Below are positions 6,130 to 23,092 of a stretch of DNA of 23,092 bases, in pieces. Location of the stretch: assembly GCA_030668825.1 (NCBI GenBank), contig DAOVET010000036.1:1-23092 (forward strand). Reading direction: 5' to 3'. Position 1 is the first letter of the stretch, and the number at the start of each line of letters is the position of its first letter. The position numbers and the translations under genes were made by a program. The notes below the pieces were generated by a model that searched no databases, was not told the DNA's origin, and saw nothing but the letters and a program-made list of their open reading frames with translations. This DNA is from Candidatus Heimdallarchaeota archaeon. Lineage in GTDB: Archaea; Asgardarchaeota; Heimdallarchaeia; Heimdallarchaeales; Heimdallarchaeaceae.

Positions 6130-6987
6130 TTAGATTTCATAGTGCAGAATGGTTTGTGCTACTTTAACAGCTTCCAACGTAGGCTTTACATCGTGAGTTC
6201 TAATGATGTGTGCGCCATTTACAAGAGCGATTATAGTTGCACCCAACGTCCCAAAAAGCCTTTGATCAGGAGGTGCATCATTTAGTACTTTGCCAATTGA
6301 TGTTTTTCTACTTATACCAACATAAACAGGTTTGTTTAGTATCCTGAATTCTTCTAAATTCTTAATAATTACATAATCATGCTGGTAATCTCTAGCTTCC
6401 CAGCTACCTATACCAGGATCAATTGCGATTTTTGTCTCATCAATACCGTATTTATTACCTATTGCAATACTTTTTCTTAGTTCAGCGATGATATCATTAA
6501 TTAGATATACATCTCCTGGCTCATTTCTAGCTGCCATAACAACAGCTGTTCCATCAAAATCAGCTATACATTTAGCTATTTTTTCTTCTTTCTTAAAACC
6601 AGAAATATCGTTTATGATGTTAACTCCCTTATTCAATGAATGTTCAGCAACTGCTGAACGTTGAGTATCAACTGAAATTTCAATATTCTTGTAACTACTA
6701 AGAACATCCAGTGTTATTTCCAATGTTTCCTTTATAATTTGAAGTTCTGTTATTTCATCTACTCTACCTTCACCACCATAGATCTGAATAGGTCTAGTAG
6801 ATTGAGCGCCTAAATCGATGCCATGCACACCTTCGTTTATCATGTTGGTAACCATTTTTTCTAAATCATCTGATGAAGAAACTATCGATCCTAAATAGAA
6901 TGATGCCTCTGATAGATTAACTACCCCAACAATTTTTGCAGGATGTTTATCTCCAACTAATAATTTACCCAAAAATCCTTCAATCAT
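6130..6987 (-). CDS. folP: Dihydropteroate synthase
   Basis: GVVNLSEASFY, DLGAQSTRP, ISVDT, IINDISG, DPGIG, GISRK and IIRTHDV: the full DHPS motif set. Confidence 0.92.
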   Translation of the reverse strand: MIEGFLGKLLVGDKHPAKIVGVVNLSEASFYLGSIVSSSDDLEKMVTNMINEGVHGIDLGAQSTRPIQIYGGEGRVDEITELQIIKETLEITLDVLSSYKNIEISVDTQRSAVAEHSLNKGVNIINDISGFKKEEKIAKCIADFDGTAVVMAARNEPGDVYLINDIIAELRKSIAIGNKYGIDETKIAIDPGIGSWEARDYQHDYVIIKNLEEFRILNKPVYVGISRKTSIGKVLNDAPPDQRLFGTLGATIIALVNGAHIIRTHDVKPTLEAVKVAQTILHYEI

Positions 6988-6999
6988 AGCAACATCTCT

Positions 7000-7788
7000 T
7001 TATTCATTTATTTTGTTAACATAAGGTCCGATAAACATACATTCTTCAGGAGAGATAAGAGTGTTGAGATCCGTTTCTTCATCTTTGGATATTCTTATCA
7101 TCGGAAAACCTCTGATAATTGCAAAAGGGATCATTTCATCTGTTTCTCCCATTACAATTTCTGCAGCTGTTGCTAGTTGATCAGCTATTGCTCTAACTGT
7201 AATATGCATGGGTCTTCCAAAGAGATCATTTTTTCCTCTCTCATCAAGAATTGATAAAAAACCATAAGTAGCTAATGCGCAACCCACTGTCCCTAATCTC
7301 AAAGGTGTAGTTCTTGAATCAGCTATGATAATCCCAACATACTTTTTCATTTTTTCAAAAATTCGTTTGTGAATATTCTCTGCTGATTTCTTACAATTTC
7401 TTGGCAAAAGGATTATCTTCTCTTTTCCAGAATTAGATTGATCTGCTCCAGCATTTGCTAACAGACCATACTTATTAAATGTAGTAATTGCTCCAGGAAC
7501 AACCCCTGAATAATTACTATTAGATTCATCTAAGATAACTTGAGCAAATTCCGGTTCCATATGGGCATTCTTAGCAAGTTCAATCGCTTCTCTAGATGGT
7601 TCAATAGATGAGTATGACACGATACAAGCTTCGACAACTGCAACTACTTTACTTGCAATGACAAGAATATCATCATCTTTGAATTCTATTTCACTTACTC
7701 CAAGTGACTCCTCAAGAATAGAAAGTAAATCATCACTTTCTTCCACTAATTTGTAGGAGGGTATAGGTATAATCTCCATATTTGGCAT
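7000..7788 (-). CDS. cofE: CofE-family gamma-glutamyl ligase (F420-0:L-glutamate ligase or FolC2-type folate glutamylase)
   Basis: DDILVIASKVVA, ANAGADQSN, GIIIADS, PLRLGTVG, DERGKNDLFGR, ADQLA, GETDEMIP. It lies 12 bp upstream of folP. Confidence 0.85.
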   Translation of the reverse strand: MPNMEIIPIPSYKLVEESDDLLSILEESLGVSEIEFKDDDILVIASKVVAVVEACIVSYSSIEPSREAIELAKNAHMEPEFAQVILDESNSNYSGVVPGAITTFNKYGLLANAGADQSNSGKEKIILLPRNCKKSAENIHKRIFEKMKKYVGIIIADSRTTPLRLGTVGCALATYGFLSILDERGKNDLFGRPMHITVRAIADQLATAAEIVMGETDEMIPFAIIRGFPMIRISKDEETDLNTLISPEECMFIGPYVNKINE

Positions 7789-7859
7789 TATGTTACTATG
7801 AATTATATCCTTAAAAAAATTCTTCGGCTGATGTTAGTTTTTAATTAAGATTCTGGAAT

Positions 7860-8699
7860 TTAAGCCAGAAAAGCTACTAGTAACCACGAGATTGCTATGA
7901 TAATTACAGCAACCACATTCAGAACAGCATATAGATTGGATGTTTCTTCATTGTAAATGTGATTAACATCTCTTACTATTTCATTCAGCTTTGAATCAAT
8001 AGATTCGAGAATGTCTTTACCTTCTCCTCCTTCAGTAAACTGTTCAGTTGATGTGCTTAAAACATCAATGAATCCATGTAACATTTTTTTGTCAACCTCA
8101 AGCATAGTAGGTGATGTAATTGTGTGTAGTTTTTCGTGTAGACGTTTAACTTCTTCTAAAGATAACTGTGGTATTTCCCATTTTATGTCAAATTCAACTA
8201 AATTTGCAAGATGAGTTGTTAAATCATCATAATATATTCCAAAAGGTATAGCTTTGTAATCTAATTCATTAACCAATCTAAAGAATTTAATCTCCAAGTC
8301 CTCTTGTTTAGATGAGTTATAATATTTTGAAGGGTCAACAACCAAAGCTACAGCTTGAGAGAATAGGTTTTGATAGGTTCTTTGAGTCCCTTTATCTGTT
8401 CCTGAGAGGAAGCAACCATATGAAGGATGTGTATGAGCCCAGCCAACGATGGTTTCATCCTTATCCCTTTTATGCAAATCTTCAACAATTTGAACCAGAG
8501 CTTCATCACTAAGAACTACATATGTTGATGTTTGTTCTTGTCTTCCAGTATCAAAATCAGTTATTACTAATGTTCCCTCATCATTAACATAACCTAACAA
8601 TAAACCCGCTGATTCTTTTGATTTATCTAACGAATCAACGGCTAGCATCTTAGCTAAAACATATGCAGAAATTAGAATCTCCTTTTTTGAGTGAGTCAT
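7860..8699 (-). CDS. JAMM/MPN+ (Rpn11/CSN5-like) metalloprotease with C-terminal coiled segment and single terminal TM helix
   Basis: ESAGLLLG...IVGWAHTHPSYGCFLSGTD...ALVVDP gives an intact E-x(n)-HxH-x7-S-x2-D motif. The protein ends in NLYAVLNVVAVIIIAISWLLVAFLA. Confidence 0.88.
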   Translation of the reverse strand: MTHSKKEILISAYVLAKMLAVDSLDKSKESAGLLLGYVNDEGTLVITDFDTGRQEQTSTYVVLSDEALVQIVEDLHKRDKDETIVGWAHTHPSYGCFLSGTDKGTQRTYQNLFSQAVALVVDPSKYYNSSKQEDLEIKFFRLVNELDYKAIPFGIYYDDLTTHLANLVEFDIKWEIPQLSLEEVKRLHEKLHTITSPTMLEVDKKMLHGFIDVLSTSTEQFTEGGEGKDILESIDSKLNEIVRDVNHIYNEETSNLYAVLNVVAVIIIAISWLLVAFLA

Positions 8700-8747
8700 C
8701 TCTCAAATATCCAATTTTTTCGTCTATAAAATATTTACCCTTCCCTT

Positions 8748-9794
8748 TCATATAAAACTATTGATTTCCTTTCCTATAGGTTGCTCAGTCAGGAAATAGT
8801 AAGCGAAATCTTTGAGAAGTTCAATATTTGGATTGTCAGCAGGTATATTTTGGACTGTGGTTTTATCCAAAATATCCATTAATGCCCAGATTGCCAAGAA
8901 TAGATCTAGAGGAAATCCTTTTGGATAGAGTGTTTCCAATGGTTGAGAGTTTATTTCTCTCAAGTGTACACTGTATCCCAGAATGAACTGTTTGATGTCT
9001 TCTACAGTGGCAGGGATTCCTTGAGATCCTCTATATTCAAGAAATGCTTGTCTCCCGAAAAATGTACCAATATCTTCAAACCTATCAAATGCCCCTTGCA
9101 TCCAAAAGGTTGGATCTATGAGAGCTATGTTTAACACTTCATTCTGAGGAGAAGTTCTAATCATAAGATTACTCTGATGAAAATCTCCAAAAGCATCACT
9201 TCCACCTTGTGATGAGGATATCATTTCCAGTAAGATTCTTGATTTATCCATTATCTCGTGTTCATTTGTATTGCCACCAAAAACTGCTAGAACAAGCCTT
9301 CGATATAGTTCTTCATAAATGTCTATCATTACAGGACGAGGTTTTCCTTCATGAATTATAGATAAAACATATCCACCCCAGAAACTCTTATCTTTTACAT
9401 CATGAGCATCCTCATAATTAATACCTGTGACTCCTTCATAAGCAATGAAAGTTGGAGATTTTAAATTCACATAGATGTATCGTGGGATTTTAACAACTGA
9501 TCTAGTTGAAAATTTTTTCTCCAAAAAAGAAGAATTCCTGATTTCAGTAATAACTTCTGTAGGACTTTCCATGAATTTTATTGCTAGTTTAGTTTTATGG
9601 TTTCCTAATTCAGAACTATAAAAAACATCAATAACATAAACATCACCAAACCTTCCACCAGCCTTATGATATTCAATATCATTTATTTTAACTTCTAAAA
9701 TATCTTTTCCAAATTCTCTGCGTGCTTCATCGATTAAATAATATGAAAAGGAACTGACAAGCTGTATTAATAGGGGTTTGAGTGATTCACTCAT
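8748..9794 (-). CDS. Protein-kinase-like fold phosphotransferase (APH/choline-kinase-like)
   Basis: Gly-rich AGGRFG, LAIKF (VAIK-like), following Glu helix, GDFHQSNLM (Brenner motif), LIDP (DFG-equivalent) and EDIG. Confidence 0.7.
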   Translation of the reverse strand: MSESLKPLLIQLVSSFSYYLIDEARREFGKDILEVKINDIEYHKAGGRFGDVYVIDVFYSSELGNHKTKLAIKFMESPTEVITEIRNSSFLEKKFSTRSVVKIPRYIYVNLKSPTFIAYEGVTGINYEDAHDVKDKSFWGGYVLSIIHEGKPRPVMIDIYEELYRRLVLAVFGGNTNEHEIMDKSRILLEMISSSQGGSDAFGDFHQSNLMIRTSPQNEVLNIALIDPTFWMQGAFDRFEDIGTFFGRQAFLEYRGSQGIPATVEDIKQFILGYSVHLREINSQPLETLYPKGFPLDLFLAIWALMDILDKTTVQNIPADNPNIELLKDFAYYFLTEQPIGKEINSFI

Positions 9795-9854
9795 GAGAGA
9801 ACAATTACATTTTGGGTTATTAAATTTTAGTTTAGAAGTAGTTAGTTAAGTCAA

Positions 9855-9951
9855 AAGAACGTTCTTATTATTTCTTCAAAATTAGATTTAAATTTAGCTT
9901 ATTAACCTACCAAAAATTAAGCGAAACGGATACTTAAGAAAAGTTAATAAG
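9855..9951. promoter_or_regulatory. Divergent promoter region with symmetric elements
   Basis: 12-bp palindrome AAGAACGTTCTT (9855-9866) and inverted TATA-like pair CTTATTAAC (9898-9906) / GTTAATAAG (9943-9951) between divergent genes. Confidence 0.4.
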
Positions 9952-10008
9952 ATATGAAAGGTAGTATGGCTTGAGATTCTCGCTCACTCCTCAACAAGTG
10001 GTTACTGT

Positions 10009-11010
10009 ATGAATAACGAAAAAGATTCAAATGAAATGCTAGATTGGGACAAAAAGAATGTTACAAAGTTTGCTCTATTTTTGTATGATTTAGCTAAAGA
10101 AAGAGTTCAAACAGATAGAGATGCCACAGAATCTACAGAGGAGGATGAATTTGTTGAAGATTTGATTCTATTAAATGAATCTTTAGAAAAGGAGTTACTT
10201 TATGAGCCTCTAGACACACAAAAAGTTGAGGAAGAGATTTTTGAAGAAGAAGATCTAGAAGTTGAAGGTGATTTAGAGCAAGAATTAGAGGAAGTAACAA
10301 TTGGGTTAGCTAAAGCTGTTTCTGGAGAAGATGTTGGAGAAATTGATGTTAGTGATGAAGAAGAGATAAAGGAAATAATAAAGAAAGAGCAAATACCCAT
10401 TCCTTCTGAGAATATTACAATTTCTACTGAAGTTACATTACAAGAAGAATCACTTGAGACGCAAACAAGTATTGAACTAGCCCAGGAATTCGAAGTTGAT
10501 CAACAGATTGAAGAACTAGAATCTGTTGATCTCTCGCAACCCATTGTTACTGATCCAGTTATCAATGAGGAAGTTTTTGTACAACCCGAAAACATACCTA
10601 TAGATATTCATAATTTAGTTTTTGTTGAAGAAGCTACAAGTACCCCAATTACTAAAGATGAAATTATAATTACAGATAGTGCCCAAGAGGTAGAAATTGT
10701 TCAAGAGGTAGAAATTGTCCAAGAGACAGAAATTGTCCAAGAGGCAGAGGTAGTTCAGGAATTAATTGCCAAAACTGATTTAGAGATTGAAGCTTCCAGA
10801 CGAAGACAAAAAATAATTGATAGCATGTTAGCAGAAACTAAGAAACGAGAAGATAAAGAAGGTTTCAAAGTAAGAGAACTAGGTGAAACTGAGGGTCGAG
10901 CTTATTCTGCTGTTGTCTTTGGAAATGAATCTACTAAGAACATCAAAAAATGGAAAAGATGGGAAAGAAGAAGATTAAAAGAAGAAAAGAAGAAACGGAG
11001 AAGAAAATAG
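10009..11010 (+). CDS. Highly acidic low-complexity protein with strongly basic C-terminal tail
   Basis: 333 aa with an E/D/V/I-rich core, QEVEIV repeats and a terminal KKWKRWERRRLKEEKKKRRRK. Confidence 0.8.
   Translation: MNNEKDSNEMLDWDKKNVTKFALFLYDLAKERVQTDRDATESTEEDEFVEDLILLNESLEKELLYEPLDTQKVEEEIFEEEDLEVEGDLEQELEEVTIGLAKAVSGEDVGEIDVSDEEEIKEIIKKEQIPIPSENITISTEVTLQEESLETQTSIELAQEFEVDQQIEELESVDLSQPIVTDPVINEEVFVQPENIPIDIHNLVFVEEATSTPITKDEIIITDSAQEVEIVQEVEIVQETEIVQEAEVVQELIAKTDLEIEASRRRQKIIDSMLAETKKREDKEGFKVRELGETEGRAYSAVVFGNESTKNIKKWKRWERRRLKEEKKKRRRK
10684..10755 (+). repeat. In-frame 18-bp tandem repeat x4 (QEVEIV/QEVEIV/QETEIV/QEAEVV)
   Basis: caagaggtagaaattgtt caagaggtagaaattgtc caagagacagaaattgtc caagaggcagaggtagtt. 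Confidence 0.9.
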
Positions 11011-11112
11011 AATAACTGATGTTTTTCACACAGTAAGATATTAAATAAAGTAAATAATTAAAAATAATGTGAGAATAGGATAAACAACTCACACTCAAAG
11101 TGAGGATTTAAG

Positions 11113-12150
11113 ATGAGTGACTTTGAATTACCATGGAACACGTTTGTAGGATTTAGTCTTTTTACTTTAGAAGAAGATATGATATTTGATAAAGTTATTA
11201 ATACAAAAACTGCATTTTCCACGGTTTATCAAGTCATAGATACAAGTACAAAAACAAGAGAAGAATTAAAAAAATCTCAAACAATAACTCTAGTTAATGA
11301 AGTATTTAGAGTTGATTATCATTTATTCTTCAATATAGTTTTAGCCTGCATGTTTGAACCTGAAACTGATGAAAATGTAGCTTTAGAAATGATACAGATT
11401 ATCAAGAACAAGCTTATTGAACAGCTTCAAGATTATGGAACAATTGAAAAAATGGAACCAAAAACCCAAACTGCATTAATTAAACGTTTGGGGAATTTAA
11501 TTTCTGAAAGAGCCGCAAGTCAGGTAAAGTATGATTATTTCCCAACTAAAAAACCACAAGAAATAGTATCAGAACCAGTGGAACAACCCAGAGTTGTAGA
11601 GGAGAAACCAGATTACTCACAACCAACAACACCAACACAAACCTCTACACCTGTAACACAAGCACAAGGAACTGGTCAAGTAGAAGATTTACTTGAATAT
11701 ATAGGGCAAAAAACTGAACCATTATCTCAAGGTGCTTCTGATGATAAGAAAGTTGAACTTGCTCAAGAATTATTGGAACAAGCAAAGAAAGATTCAATTG
11801 TAAAAGTAATATCTTCAATTGTTAAGGGTTTATCAACAAAAACAGGTGTTTGTTTTGTTTTTACTGGAGATAAAGGTGCTTTAGAAACAATAACTTATGG
11901 TATGTCAGAAAAACATGCAGAATTTGTTCTAGGGATTCTATCTAAATATCCAGAAGTTGTTAAACAAACCATAGAATCACCAAGTGAAGAAAAAACGCTA
12001 GATGCCGGAGATGGTGTGGTGATACTTGAAGAAACAGAAAGTGGTATGCTAGTGAGTATCACTAAAAATCGAGAGGAGATTAGCATAATCTCCAAAAGAA
12101 TGAAACTCGTAACAACTCTTATTTCTGAGTTCCTAAAACCATCCTTTTAA
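11113..12150 (+). CDS. Longin-like N-domain + Pro/Thr/Gln linker + roadblock-like C-domain protein (paralogue A)
   Basis: N-terminal pattern GFSLFTL...FRVDYHLFFNIVLACMF...ALEMIQIIKNKL, a low-complexity linker QPTTPTQTSTPVTQ, and a C-domain shared with 12887..13492 and 13657..14622. The fold names are inferred. Confidence 0.65.
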   Translation: MSDFELPWNTFVGFSLFTLEEDMIFDKVINTKTAFSTVYQVIDTSTKTREELKKSQTITLVNEVFRVDYHLFFNIVLACMFEPETDENVALEMIQIIKNKLIEQLQDYGTIEKMEPKTQTALIKRLGNLISERAASQVKYDYFPTKKPQEIVSEPVEQPRVVEEKPDYSQPTTPTQTSTPVTQAQGTGQVEDLLEYIGQKTEPLSQGASDDKKVELAQELLEQAKKDSIVKVISSIVKGLSTKTGVCFVFTGDKGALETITYGMSEKHAEFVLGILSKYPEVVKQTIESPSEEKTLDAGDGVVILEETESGMLVSITKNREEISIISKRMKLVTTLISEFLKPSF

Positions 12151-12214
12151 ATTTCAAATCAAGATTATTTTTTATAATGCTGTCTCAATATTATTAGGAG
12201 AGTGATTAATTCTG

Positions 12215-12862
12215 ATGAAAGGAAATCAGTCCAAAGAGATATTCGTTTCAGAAGTAATACGTAGTAATGCAAAGGAAATATTATCCTTTTTCAAATATAT
12301 TGAAAAAAACCTACAAAAAGAGAAATTGCATTTAAAAGAAGTTAGTCAAAAACGCATATTATTAAGTAAAAAAATCTCTGGAAAATCGGTCTATTTTGAG
12401 TTTCAAGATACTGAAAATGAAAATTTCTTTCTATTAGAAGTCTTTTCCTATAAATTTGTTCTAAATACCATCTTACCCAAATGGGTTCAATGGAATTTTT
12501 TGGGTCTAAAATTAGGAATTTGGTTGCTTCTTATTTTAATTGGTGGATTATTAATCCCCCTAATCATATATCTTGGATTTAGAGAAAATCTTCCTGAAGA
12601 ATTTCAACGTATTCTTTTAATTGTTGGGATTATTTTAATGTGTAGTGGTATAATAGCTTCAGGAGTATTGTTTATTGTAAATCGTATCAAAAGGAACAGA
12701 AAGTTTCGAAGAAAATCTGAGGTAGAGAAATTATCATTTGAAATTTCCAAGTTAGTTATGGAATACACAGAAAGCACATCAGATAAAATGATTTGTTGGA
12801 AATGCTTCAAAGAGATAAGTGTAGGATTGAAAAAATGTCCTGAATGTGGTACAAATATATAG
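12215..12862 (+). CDS. 2-TM membrane protein with C-terminal zinc ribbon
   Basis: Two hydrophobic helices, a basic juxtamembrane stretch, then CWKC-x10-CPECG. Confidence 0.8.
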   Translation: MKGNQSKEIFVSEVIRSNAKEILSFFKYIEKNLQKEKLHLKEVSQKRILLSKKISGKSVYFEFQDTENENFFLLEVFSYKFVLNTILPKWVQWNFLGLKLGIWLLLILIGGLLIPLIIYLGFRENLPEEFQRILLIVGIILMCSGIIASGVLFIVNRIKRNRKFRRKSEVEKLSFEISKLVMEYTESTSDKMICWKCFKEISVGLKKCPECGTNI

Positions 12863-12886
12863 ATATGTTAAGTAAATCAAGAAAAG

Positions 12887-13492
12887 CTAAATATCTTCTA
12901 ATAATAAAGTATTTTCAATAACTACATTTTGCACATGTCTCAGCTTTCTAGAGAGTTCATCCACGTCTTTTTGTTTTTGAACAATCCCAATCAGATAGTT
13001 ATCTTTTTGGCAATTTTCTAGAACTACAAAGCCGATTCCAGTATCAAGAACTTTGACTTCTTCATCTGATCCCAATAAATCATTGACAACGGGTGGATAT
13101 TTTCTGAAAATTTCCAATATTTTCTTCACTATATCTCTTTCGAGAGGTCCTCTAACTATGACTCTTACATCTGAACTTTCTGGATGTGGTACAAGTGCTG
13201 CAGCAGAGAGAGATTTAAAATCTGAAGAAATGCTATCAAGTAAGGCATCAATAGTGACACGTATGGCTTCCTTAACATCGTCACTTGTAGAAGTTTGTGT
13301 TAGAAAATCACGTAAATACTGACCTGACTTGAGTTTCTTTGCTGAAATGTTTAAGGCTTCATATGCTACTTCTTCCATTTCTACGAAAACATTCTTTATA
13401 GCAGGTTTTCTTTTTCGTGAAGAAATCCTTGAGGAAGGAGAATCACTAGAATCTTTTTGCCTTGTCATTATTTTACCACAAAGATAAGTCAT
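12887..13492 (-). CDS. Roadblock-like domain protein with Ser/Arg/Lys-rich N-terminus (paralogue B)
   Basis: C-domain ILEIFRKYPPVV...EEVKVLDTGIGFVVLE...YLIGIV aligns by eye with paralogues A and C. An alternative start is ATG 13468. Confidence 0.65.
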   Translation of the reverse strand: MTYLCGKIMTRQKDSSDSPSSRISSRKRKPAIKNVFVEMEEVAYEALNISAKKLKSGQYLRDFLTQTSTSDDVKEAIRVTIDALLDSISSDFKSLSAAALVPHPESSDVRVIVRGPLERDIVKKILEIFRKYPPVVNDLLGSDEEVKVLDTGIGFVVLENCQKDNYLIGIVQKQKDVDELSRKLRHVQNVVIENTLLLEDI

Positions 13493-13656
13493 CTTAAAAC
13501 TCTAAAAAGATTTCCTTATTCTTAATAGCTGTAAAAAATAAGAAAATAAAGGTGGGAGAAGTGTTTTTCATAAATTTTCACAATTCATTAGCTAATTAGA
13601 CACTTGGGATATATTTATTAGCCAACAATAAGATAATAATATCTAGTTGAGGTCTT

Positions 13657-14622
13657 ATGCCTTTTCGTAGAAGTGAAATCAATCCATTAGTAGCTGTTAT
13701 TATCTATGATTTGATAGGAAACAATATCTTTGAGATTGAAAATACAGAGGATGAAATTGAAAAATCAGAAATTCATAGTTATTTCATTCATCCAATTGAA
13801 TTTTACCATTGGGTTAGAAGATATAATGAAATAACAATTTTTCGAGGAAAGTTTAGAGCCACTTATATTACGTTTATTGATTTAACTTTATTATTCGTAT
13901 CACGTGTAGAGAATATCGCTGCTGAGGTTCGTCCTACAATATTAAAATATGTTCAAAAGTTTGGTGAAGATGTAATCAGGTATCTTATTACAGAAGAAAA
14001 TGTTGATCTTCTAATCAAAACTTGTGGTTCAGATTTTAATAAAAACAAAGAGAGTATCAGGATTCACATTGATAAAATATTCTCACGACTTGGAATTGAA
14101 AAAAGCGAAATTGAACCCATTAAACCTATTGAAGTAAAAATTGTTCCAGAAACAGCAATTACTCAGACTAAAGCTGAGGTGTTTGAAGAAATTCGTCCTT
14201 TTGAAACTGTTCCAAAGATTCCAGTCAGTAAGATGACGCAAGAAATACTTGATGAAGCAAATAAAAGAGCAATAACTTCCTTGCTTTTTTCATCCATCAG
14301 AGGGTGTAATTTTCCTTCAGCTGCAGCTTATATTTTCCCAAAAGATGATGGATCAATGGGAGAACTATATGCAGGAAATCTAGAGGAGAAGAAGATTGTA
14401 TATGTTTTAGAAACCATTACAAGATTTCCAAGAGTCATTTACGAGATGGTAAATTCAGAGGATGAAATCAAAGCTTTAAATGCAGGAGTTGTTCAGATTA
14501 TTGTAGAAGACTGTTCTGAAGGTAAAATACTGGTTGGAATGACAACTAATGTACACGATGTTATGAATGTAGGATACAAATTTAAGATTATCAAACACAT
14601 TCTAAAAAGCATGGGCTTTTAG
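13657..14622 (+). CDS. Longin-like N-domain + roadblock-like C-domain protein (paralogue C)
   Basis: N-terminal LVAVIIYDLIGNNIF...FRATYITFIDLTLLFVS...helix, and C-domain VLETITRFPRVI...DEIKALNAGVVQIIVE...ILVGM. GAGGT SD upstream. Confidence 0.65.
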   Translation: MPFRRSEINPLVAVIIYDLIGNNIFEIENTEDEIEKSEIHSYFIHPIEFYHWVRRYNEITIFRGKFRATYITFIDLTLLFVSRVENIAAEVRPTILKYVQKFGEDVIRYLITEENVDLLIKTCGSDFNKNKESIRIHIDKIFSRLGIEKSEIEPIKPIEVKIVPETAITQTKAEVFEEIRPFETVPKIPVSKMTQEILDEANKRAITSLLFSSIRGCNFPSAAAYIFPKDDGSMGELYAGNLEEKKIVYVLETITRFPRVIYEMVNSEDEIKALNAGVVQIIVEDCSEGKILVGMTTNVHDVMNVGYKFKIIKHILKSMGF

Positions 14623-22041: not shown

Positions 22042-23092
22042 TTAGTCTGTGCTTTTTACTTTACATTTCAAACTAGGAATAAGTGGTAATTCTATTTCAA
22101 AACCGACTACAGGCACCCAAATCTGATTATTCTCAAGTATACTTGGATGAATTTCTCCTATAATTCCACATTCTTTGTTCTCTATTATAATCTGCCCACA
22201 TCTTCCTTCAGTAAATGAAGGATGATTGACTTGTTTTATTTCATAGTCAGTATTTAATAAAGATAAAAGTTGATTCAATCTTTTATGGACATCTTCAAAG
22301 CTAGCATCAGCGTCAGCACAGAGAAAAGCGGTATTACTTTGTGTGATAACCTTTTTGTCTATTAATTTTACAATTTCTCCTACTTCAAAAAGCATCTGTG
22401 GGTAAGTTTCATGTGTATTCTTAGAAAGAACATTAATCAAAAGTGGATAGATCATTTTACGCATAACACTATAGGTGGATGTAACAGGATTCTCAATTTT
22501 CACATAATCTTGCTTGTCAATATTTACTCTAGTAGTTAAAATTTCAGGGTCAGTAAGAATGTTTGTAAGTACCTCAGTTCCTCCAGCACCTACAAGTATA
22601 TTTCGTACCAAATTCTCGCTTTCAGTTTCAGGTAAAAGCCCCCCAGAAGTTAGAACCTTCCATTTTGTTGGACCAATTTTGTTATAGTCTAAAGCAATTG
22701 CTAATTCTTCAGCTATATCGATTCAGTGGAGAATATCTTTTCTGTAAGGAGGAATTTCAATGGTTAAAATATTGCCATCAATTGAATTGCAATTGAATCT
22801 TCTTTTTGCAACTAACTTTGCGGCATCTTTTGGTTTTATTTTTGTTCCAAGATATTTGTTTACTACATCTAGATTAATCTCAATCTCCTCTTTTTCAAAA
22901 AGGGGAGTTATCACACTCCTTGTGTAAATATTTGGAGGGTATTCTATTTTAACACTATAAATTTCAGCACCATGAGTTACCAAAACCTGACATAATATGT
23001 TCAAAACCAAATTAACTGTTTCAAAATTGGTTCCAGTTACTTCTATTAAACTGCCAGTAGTTTCTTCTGTAATTTTACCTACGTCATTGCTG
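22042..23092 (-). CDS. pheT: Phenylalanine--tRNA ligase beta subunit, 5'-truncated by the window edge, with an in-frame TGA at 22723-22725
   Basis: One frame runs from the window end: SNDVGKITEETTGSLIEVTGT...IPPYRKDILH*IDIAEELAIALDYN...EVLTNILT...IENPVTSTYSVMR...FEVG...HPSFTEGRC...GIIGEIHP. The two track ORFs (22723..23010 and 22042..22611) are in the same frame. Confidence 0.92.

Follow-up and report, generated by a model that had tools for sequence, protein, structure and literature searches.

A putative tail-anchored Rpn11-like JAMM protease encoded in a Heimdallarchaeal genome

Introduction

JAMM/MPN+ isopeptidases are a known class of enzymes, and their soluble archaeal and eukaryotic members are well studied. 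The closest described relative of the protein considered here is CsRpn11 of Candidatus Caldiarchaeum subterraneum (PDB 6FJU, 6FJV, 6FNN and 6FNO). The portions of PMC6043591 drawn on here describe it as a soluble protein encoded in a ubiquitin operon that cleaves both the ubiquitin precursor and ubiquitin conjugates; its Ins-1 loop positions the ubiquitin tail, the Ins-2 and extra N-terminal helix of proteasomal Rpn11 are absent, and its C-terminal helices are dispensable for catalysis. The subject of this report is a gene on a 23,092-base contig, hereafter the window, from a Candidatus Heimdallarchaeota genome. Its product has the same JAMM site as CsRpn11, a core of the same length with no extra insertion and, like CsRpn11, helices after the core, but it is 77 residues longer and ends in a predicted membrane helix, and its gene is unlinked to ubiquitin genes. 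With moderate confidence, and judging from its sequence, we propose that it is a cytoplasm-facing, tail-anchored, Rpn11-like JAMM/MPN+ isopeptidase that acts on ubiquitin or a ubiquitin-like protein at the membrane.

Among eukaryotic proteins, Rpn11 (PSMD14) and CSN5 share with it the MPN+ fold, the HxHx7SxxD motif and helices after the core. AMSH/STAMBP and yeast Sst2 have a JAMM domain too and are more distant than Rpn11 and CSN5. AMSH and Doa4 remove ubiquitin from membrane proteins in eukaryotes, AMSH being recruited via partner-binding domains; the site of action proposed for the anchored protein, the membrane beside the ESCRT machinery, is the same as that of AMSH. The layout has a parallel in USP19, a tail-anchored deubiquitinase of the endoplasmic reticulum that faces the cytosol by way of a C-terminal membrane helix. 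The logic is the same, but USP19 belongs to the USP cysteine proteases, has an unrelated fold and is not a homolog.

Asgard archaea carry genes for ubiquitin, for E1, E2 and E3 enzymes and for ESCRT-I, -II and -III, and the step of ubiquitin removal has been given little attention. No description of an anchored archaeal JAMM protein was found in the literature searched, which comprised titles and the beginnings of abstracts and did not cover the supplements of the Asgard papers. In the sections considered, deubiquitinases appear in PMC9192718 only as an InterPro code in the methods and in PMC10936438 only as an abbreviation in a figure legend, and 10.1101/2023.07.25.550441 gives one sentence to a Jab1/MPN gene in a Borrarchaeia gene cluster. 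The words "membrane" and "transmembrane" never occur in the main text of the CsRpn11 paper, and an anchor would have been invisible to the bioinformatics described there because everything outside the JAMM core was trimmed (PMC6043591).

Results and Discussion

The gene and its catalytic domain

The window is an entire contig (C14) of a 2.76-Mb genome (G000) that consists of 138 contigs and is rated 90.6% complete; GC content is 29-36%. The list of open reading frames (ORFs) places the JAMM gene at 7860-8699 on the minus strand, with an ATG start and a TAA stop (7860-7862). The 279-residue product includes VGWAHTHPSYGCFLSGTD (residues 85-102), ILESIDSKLNEIVRDVNHIY (residues 228-247) and the hydrophobic LYAVLNVVAVIIIAISWLLVAFLA (residues 256-279). 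This is not a chance ORF, because 44 of the 48 homologs recovered by a word-indexed database search are full length (277-294 aa, at least 94% coverage, 49-96% identity). The homologs are labeled by their source as Candidatus Heimdallarchaeota or Heimdallarchaeaceae and are annotated as "proteasome lid subunit RPN8/RPN11" or "26S proteasome regulatory subunit N11", names that would misdescribe a membrane-anchored, stand-alone enzyme.

Residues 1-157 (8229-8699, minus strand) form an MPN/JAB catalytic domain, as indicated by Pfam, an AlphaFold2 (AF2) model and Foldseek. Pfam JAB (PF01398) covers residues 5-112 (E 1.3e-15, 57.6 bits against a cut-off of 22.5), with a weaker match to Prok-JAB. The E...HxHx7SxxD set is complete (E29, H89, H91, S99 and D102), and none of its residues varies in either of two alignments (18 and 44 sequences). 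Its zinc-binding part, HTHPSYGCFLSGTD, is read in the sequence at 8394-8435 (minus strand). The codon of Glu29 is at 8613-8615 (minus strand), and this residue is, by analogy with the JAMM enzymes in the portions of PMC6043591 used here, the general-base glutamate of the site. A motif longer by one residue, HxHx8SxxD, is found in many anchored forms outside the Heimdall group.

The AF2 model was built from 44 sequences (mean predicted local distance difference test [pLDDT] 82.1, predicted template modeling score [pTM] 0.58). It has an MPN fold with pLDDT >90 over residues 11-150, and the core reaches to about residue 157. Fold matches to CsRpn11 and yeast Rpn11 have template modeling (TM) scores of 0.85-0.88, including the CsRpn11:ubiquitin complex 6fno_B (E 1.6e-16, TM 0.87 on the target, 38% identity) and yeast Rpn11 5u4p_B (TM 0.88). 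The best solved relatives by sequence are likewise CsRpn11 (6fju and 6fjv, E 4e-24) and yeast and human Rpn11 (5e-18 to 1e-16), followed by CSN5 (1e-14 to 1e-12) and AMSH/Sst2 (1e-10 to 5e-6). The alignment with CsRpn11 over residues 10-155 has one single-residue gap; the loop of residues 50-62 is aligned with the CsRpn11 region, and T51, G52, Q54, Q56, T57 and T59 are nearly invariant in the family. The original prediction of an intact, Rpn11-like JAMM motif thus agrees with the Pfam match, the invariant catalytic set and the identity of the closest relatives, and the model supplies both an MPN fold and a C-terminal helix (pLDDT ~88).

Structural marks of Rpn11 proper, the subunit of the 26S proteasome lid, are lacking. 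Ins-2 and the extra N-terminal helix, by which Rpn11 docks in the lid, are missing, because the alignment with CsRpn11, which has neither, contains a gap of one residue and residue 5 is already the first of the domain. Nor does the genome have an inactive, Rpn8-like MPN partner, because both of its JAB matches, the only two found at this level of completeness, carry the HxH...SxxD active-site motif. Where Rpn11 and CSN5 have the helices of the lid bundle, this protein has a predicted membrane anchor. The marks of the AMSH type, an MIT or other ESCRT-binding module and a Lys63-reading Ins-2, are missing too: Pfam finds no MIT or other recruiting domain, there is no insertion relative to CsRpn11, and the protein would be anchored directly.

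A single hydrophobic helix at the C-terminus

Residues 256-279 (7863-7934, minus strand) are a predicted transmembrane anchor that reaches the last residue of the protein. The Kyte-Doolittle mean over 19 residues (KD19) peaks at 2.81 at residues 259-277, and no other hydrophobic segment is found before residue 251 (maximum 0.78 in spans sampled every 10 residues). In the AF2 model residues 226-278 are one helix, the last 20 residues of which are the hydrophobic segment. No signal peptide is present, the N-terminus being part of the folded MPN core, and there is no second membrane segment. A single helix at the extreme C-terminus without a signal peptide implies a tail-anchored layout with the N-terminal domain in the cytoplasm, and the one C-terminal hydrophobic helix of the original prediction is recovered here. 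Within the family of the window, Y257, N261 and W272 are nearly invariant, which hints that the helix may do more than anchor the protein. The PGF-CTERM motif is a sorting signal of secreted proteins; this type of archaeal C-terminal signal was considered and rejected, as the protein has no N-terminal signal peptide, no such motif and no basic tail.

Conservation of the anchor

Seventeen of the 48 homologs were aligned, and the hydrophobic end is present in all 16 that are full length and not in the 179-residue P0048. In the phylum, 294 of 400 genomes have a JAB match at E ≤1e-5. In the family of the window (f1), full-length matches to the JAMM protein occur in 28 of the 31 genomes, a further genome has a fragment at the start of a contig, and the two genomes without a match are 89% and 81% complete. 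All 15 of the same-family loci examined keep the tail (L003-L014, which are the copy in the window and 11 relatives, and L032-L034).

A wider survey took the best JAB match per genome from 34 genomes (35 loci) that we chose to span 18 Asgard families. Of the 35 loci, 26 encode a protein that ends in a hydrophobic helix (KD19 2.2-3.05), and 13 of the families have this helix (f1, f2, f3, f4, f7, f11, f12, f13, f14, f15, f26, f27 and f33). Among the cluster members, anchored forms carry the source labels Baldrarchaeia/Baldrarchaeota and Odinarchaeota. Other families include shorter anchored forms (219-244 aa), in which the stalk that precedes the anchor in the window's protein is absent or cannot be aligned. 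Between families it is the hydrophobicity of the tail that is conserved, not its sequence. A profile search of 1.84 billion representative sequences gave 9,716 matches at E ≤0.001; among the best 150 of these, 40 have a hydrophobic C-terminal helix, and 34 of the 40 are within the first 43. The transmembrane tail is thus kept by homologs, throughout the same-family loci examined and in most of the loci surveyed across families, which was one of the points on which the predicted anchoring had been made to depend.

A separate class of JAB proteins of 400-760 aa (P0149, P0153, P0161, P0162, P0165, P0176 and others) begins with the JAB domain, which is followed by a single hydrophobic helix (about residues 170-195) and a long C-terminal region. 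For one of them the source gives the name "PKD repeat protein/proteasome lid subunit". In the trees described below the Asgard anchored group and this class cluster apart.

Phylogeny of the MPN core

Three trees of the MPN core were calculated: a FastTree phylogeny of 182 rows, a quick IQ-TREE phylogeny of 68 rows and a careful IQ-TREE phylogeny of the same 68 rows under LG+C20+F+G4. Rows were dropped from the 68-row trees to save time and not by a criterion linked to the result. In outline all three give the same picture. The careful tree unites the 12 anchored rows from the order of the window in a starred clade (98/90) and has all 25 Asgard anchored rows inside a group of 27 that is not starred (ultrafast bootstrap [UFBoot] 82, Shimodaira-Hasegawa-like approximate likelihood ratio test [SH-aLRT] 90). 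The remaining two rows nested in this group lack an anchor; they are L039 (f17) and the long-branched P0146. One anchor-less relative inside the anchored group is labeled Helarchaeota by its source.

A eukaryote-like clade (100/97) is separate from the anchored group. It was labeled by its GCWLS motif, which matches the yeast Rpn11 line and CSN5. The soluble Asgard forms, including the second JAB protein of this genome, are a starred clade (98/86) on the same side as the eukaryote-like clade. The deep split between the eukaryote-like and the anchored rows has support of only 44/91; forcing the two together costs 26.3 log-likelihood (lnL) units, and the constrained topology is not rejected by the approximately unbiased (AU) test (p-AU 0.116). 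The pairwise scores point in the direction opposite to the tree, the match to solved Rpn11 being 5e-18 for the anchored protein and 1.4e-9 for the soluble paralog. As far as the MPN core sequences go, the anchored proteins are a distinct Asgard lineage. An MPN phylogeny against Rpn11, CSN5 and AMSH was part of the original prediction; its outcome makes the anchored forms a separate Asgard group, and either the anchored or the soluble Asgard forms may be the nearer to eukaryotic Rpn11 and CSN5.

Ubiquitin, ESCRT and insertion genes in the genome

The genome contains ubiquitin, E1, E2 and ESCRT genes; a search for ubiquitin and ESCRT genes had been proposed with the original prediction. A compact ubiquitin-ESCRT cluster is located at G000:C2:11755-23900 (locus L062, 5755-17900). 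Profile matches give its order as two Snf7 genes, Vps4 (MIT, AAA and Vps4_C), Vps25, an EAP30 protein, a 482-aa fusion of a UEV/E2-like domain with Vps23-core and Vps28, a ThiF-type E1, and a 78-aa ubiquitin (PF00240, E 1.7e-14) that ends in ...RTKGGL; a Ras-family GTPase lies further along. No JAB gene is found in the 18 kb of this cluster, which is therefore a ubiquitin cluster without a protease of its own.

A second ubiquitin operon, at G000:C96:30000-36600 (loci L002 and L063), encodes a 119-aa, acidic-headed ubiquitin-like protein that ends in ...STAG without an extension, a 416-aa E1, a protein of 367 aa that shows six hydropathy peaks and whose C-terminus weakly matches RING (zf-RING_2, E 0.0024), a soluble JAB protein (239 aa) and an E2 (UQ_con, E 2.7e-26). 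A gelsolin-repeat protein is encoded near this operon. The soluble JAB paralog, which is also found in Loki-type genomes, has a JAB domain with an intact motif, HSHPSYTPFLSGDD. It differs from the anchored protein in having an N-terminal coiled extension and no membrane helix, in the position of its gene between the E2 and membrane RING genes, and in its weaker match to solved Rpn11 (1e-9 to 5e-11).

With ubiquitin, a candidate membrane-embedded ligase and ESCRT machinery all present, the genome provides for the needs of a membrane deubiquitinase. A Get3/ArsA homolog (PF02374, E 1.4e-80) is encoded at G000:C115:6146-7087. This family is matched in all 14 control genomes as well, so its presence is permissive of tail-anchored insertion and not specific to it.

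Proposed function

The JAMM protein would be made in the cytoplasm, released from the ribosome and captured by its hydrophobic end. The single C-terminal helix would then be inserted post-translationally into the cell membrane, probably via the Get3/ArsA homolog. In this orientation the catalytic domain would face the cytoplasm, and the roughly 100 residues of helices that follow it would set the active site a few nanometers from the membrane. As in CsRpn11, the loop of residues 50-62 may fold onto the extended C-terminal tail of ubiquitin, and a zinc-bound water activated by E29 would most likely cut after the Gly-Gly of ubiquitin. Possible substrates are the one-residue extension of the ubiquitin precursor and ubiquitin on membrane proteins; candidate conjugates at the membrane would be substrates of the membrane RING ligase and cargo of the ubiquitin-ESCRT pathway. 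Confinement to the plane of the membrane would favor conjugates that are membrane bound. In favor of such a role, the anchored form is the sole JAB-family match in two of five other genomes checked (G303 and G099), and both of these have ubiquitin. On these grounds some ubiquitin trimming probably takes place at the membrane in this archaeon.

Several observations weigh against this proposal. No enzyme assay, localization or expression data were found for any member of the group. The membrane character of the tail is read from a hydropathy scale alone, and the linker and stalk are modeled at pLDDT 54-80 only. The best JAB protein has no anchor in families f5, f6, f17, f19 and f20 (nine loci), none of 15 JAB proteins scored from five genomes of f5, f6 and f19 has one, and the sole JAB protein of one genome of f13 (G114) lacks it, though another genome of that family (G112) has it. 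The anchor is thus dispensable, given its absence from five sampled families and from the only JAB protein of G114. In none of the five genomes checked that have the anchored form is its gene close to one for ubiquitin: the distance is about 830 kb in G303, 59 kb in G116 and 46 kb in G007, and the two are on different contigs in G000 and G099. The soluble JAB paralog, in contrast, is inside ubiquitin operons in G000 (contig C96) and G116 and is for that reason the more obvious ubiquitin protease of this genome.

The alternative that fares best is that the protein is mainly a maturation protease, which trims the extension of the ubiquitin precursor, one Leu past the Gly-Gly, with the anchor merely concentrating or regulating it. 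The ubiquitin of the ESCRT cluster does end in such an extension, and processing of a CsUb precursor by CsRpn11 is described in the portions of PMC6043591 drawn on here. Moreover, with the anchored form as the sole JAB-family match in G303 and G099, any JAMM-dependent processing there would fall to it. However, the retention of an anchor across 13 sampled families is not explained by a soluble substrate, the second, soluble JAB protein of the genome could do the processing, and the second ubiquitin-like protein has no extension to remove. We regard a role confined mainly to maturation as unlikely.

Still less probable is that the target is not ubiquitin at all, the protein being a JAMM protease for a sulfur carrier of the SAMP/MoaD/ThiS type or for some other peptide bond at the membrane, with its likeness to Rpn11 reflecting common descent. 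The lack of linkage to ubiquitin genes would fit such a role, as would the four ThiF-type E1 genes of the genome, two of which (255 aa) are outside the ubiquitin clusters, and a sub-threshold match to the NCBIfam haloarchaeal desampylase model (E 0.0039, 17 bits against a cut-off of 130). Yet in both sequence and fold the protein is far closer to Rpn11, CsRpn11 and CSN5 than to the desampylase model, its ubiquitin-binding core aligns with that of CsRpn11 with the one-residue gap already mentioned, and all five of the other genomes checked have ubiquitin.

Linker, stalk and the nature of the C-terminal helix

Between the catalytic core and the anchor are a linker of residues 158-225 (8025-8228, minus strand) and a stalk helix of residues 226-255 (7935-8024, minus strand). 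The linker is modeled as short helices (159-167, 181-193 and 201-216; pLDDT 54-80), and its W174, P177, L179 and L187 are nearly invariant within the family; it has no family match in Pfam and no match in the Atlas. The stalk (pLDDT ~65) is continuous with the membrane helix. A search of the Atlas with residues 158-279 returned no usable look-alike.

The helix as a whole could in principle serve packing within an assembly, as the C-terminal helices of Rpn11 and CSN5 do in the lid helical bundle, and not membrane anchoring. In Foldseek the alignments with full-length Rpn11 and CSN5 extend over the whole model (260-300 columns), C-terminal helices included, and an assembly function of those helices is described in the portions of PMC6043591 used here. 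These long alignments have root mean square deviations of 9-15 Å, however; the tail is a run of 24 consecutive residues (KD19 2.8) that ends exactly at the C-terminus, with hydrophobicity the only feature conserved between families; and, since both JAB genes of the genome carry the active-site motif, there is no inactive MPN partner for it to pack against. A packing role is, on this evidence, highly improbable.

The SNARE-like coil and transmembrane tail of the original prediction, and with it a part for the protein in membrane fusion, is scarcely credible and was rejected. In its favor, the helix runs straight into the C-terminal membrane segment in the AF2 model and has a short 3-4 hydrophobic spacing (residues 229-246). 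Against it, Pfam matches no SNARE or synaptobrevin family up to an E of 1, and the stalk helix has some 30 residues where a SNARE motif has about 53. The shorter anchored forms lack this stalk or have none that can be aligned, the sequence of the tail is neither conserved nor alignable between families, and the Atlas offers no look-alike. What stands of the predicted heptad-like stretch is the 3-4 spacing itself, read from the sequence over some 18 residues as L229, I232, L236, I239, V243 and I246.

The upstream kinase

Directly upstream of the JAMM gene, on the same strand and separated from it by 48 nt, is a 348-aa ORF (8748-9794, minus strand). It has no match in Pfam, NCBIfam or PDB sequence searches. 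Its AF2 model (pLDDT 89.7, pTM 0.86) matches the macrolide phosphotransferase MphB (5uxa, E 1.7e-9) in Foldseek and, more weakly, PsiK, APH(9), APH(2''), MTR kinase and NahK (TM scores 0.4-0.56). Going by the model, the product is a kinase of the aminoglycoside/macrolide-phosphotransferase and choline-kinase fold. K73, D204, H206, N209 and D227 are invariant, and these residues presumably fit the lysine, catalytic-loop and metal-binding positions of that fold, for which reason the kinase looks active.

Adjacency of the two genes was assessed by comparing coordinates by hand. Of the 31 genomes of the family, 27 have the kinase and JAMM genes side by side, and the other four are contig-edge or incomplete cases. 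In f4 the two lie side by side in 6 of 12 genomes and no more than about 2.3 kb apart in 5 others, so that a kinase directly upstream of the JAMM gene is a feature of two families only. In f2 and f3 the genes are on different contigs in the three genomes where both could be placed, and no kinase was found in any of the 12 genomes of f7, all of which have the anchored JAMM protein. The pairing is thus restricted to certain lineages, and the kinase was rejected as an obligate partner because it is missing in f7 and unlinked in f2 and f3.

A paralog of the kinase is present in every genome of the family (here at G000:C34:3024-4061). In 11 genomes the match holds one or two in-frame stops (TAA, TAG or TGA); there are none in the copy of this genome.

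Other features of the window

Within the 48-nt spacer after the kinase gene, an A/T-rich box, taaatattttata (8725-8737, minus strand), is located 26-38 nt 5' of the JAMM ATG and may be a promoter element of the JAMM gene's own. Oligo-T runs can act as archaeal transcription terminators, and a run of seven T at 7813-7819 (minus strand), 41 nt past the JAMM stop and ahead of cofE, is a possible transcription end for the gene. No RNA dataset is listed as containing positions 6900-10000, and none of seven short contigs from two runs guessed to be RNA, one of them marked "probably DNA", spans a gene junction. DNA nearly identical to positions 6900-10000 of the window (at least half of the sampled words) is present in 15 public metagenome runs labeled as cold seep, marine sediment or sediment, and three of them may be where this DNA came from.

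Downstream of the JAMM gene are a CofE-type F420 ligase gene and a pterin-binding, DHPS-like gene, which are linked to it within the window's family only. Positions 10009-14622, divergent from the kinase and JAMM genes, contain four ORFs on the plus strand, one of 333 aa that is acidic and rich in repeats and three others of 345, 215 and 321 aa, together with a 201-aa ORF on the minus strand (12887-13492); none of these has a significant match in Pfam or NCBIfam. The gene for the β chain of phenylalanyl-tRNA synthetase (PheRS; 22042-23091) contains one in-frame TGA, at 22723-22725 (minus strand), which occurs in this genome alone among the 31 of the family. A relative that is 96% identical has Trp at this position, and its codon there must therefore be TGG. 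The likeliest origin of the TGA is an error in assembly or sequencing, or else a mutation at the level of the strain, and not recoding.

Conclusions

A conserved, membrane-fixed, Rpn11-like protease would be a concrete candidate for the enzyme that removes ubiquitin in Asgard archaea. By analogy with AMSH and Doa4, one may go further and suppose that the anchored JAMM protein is the ancestral Asgard deubiquitinase and fills the unassigned removal step of the Asgard ubiquitin-ESCRT pathway, in that it strips ubiquitin off membrane proteins before scission by ESCRT-III and Vps4 and is switched by the kinase in families of the Heimdall group; we hold this extended scheme to be doubtful. If it were true, the editing of ubiquitin at membranes would predate eukaryotes, and the soluble, complex-embedded Rpn11/CSN5 type would be a separate branch. 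Should the more limited proposal hold, that the protein is a tail-anchored isopeptidase working at the membrane, the placing of a deubiquitinase at the membrane would have been invented before eukaryotes.

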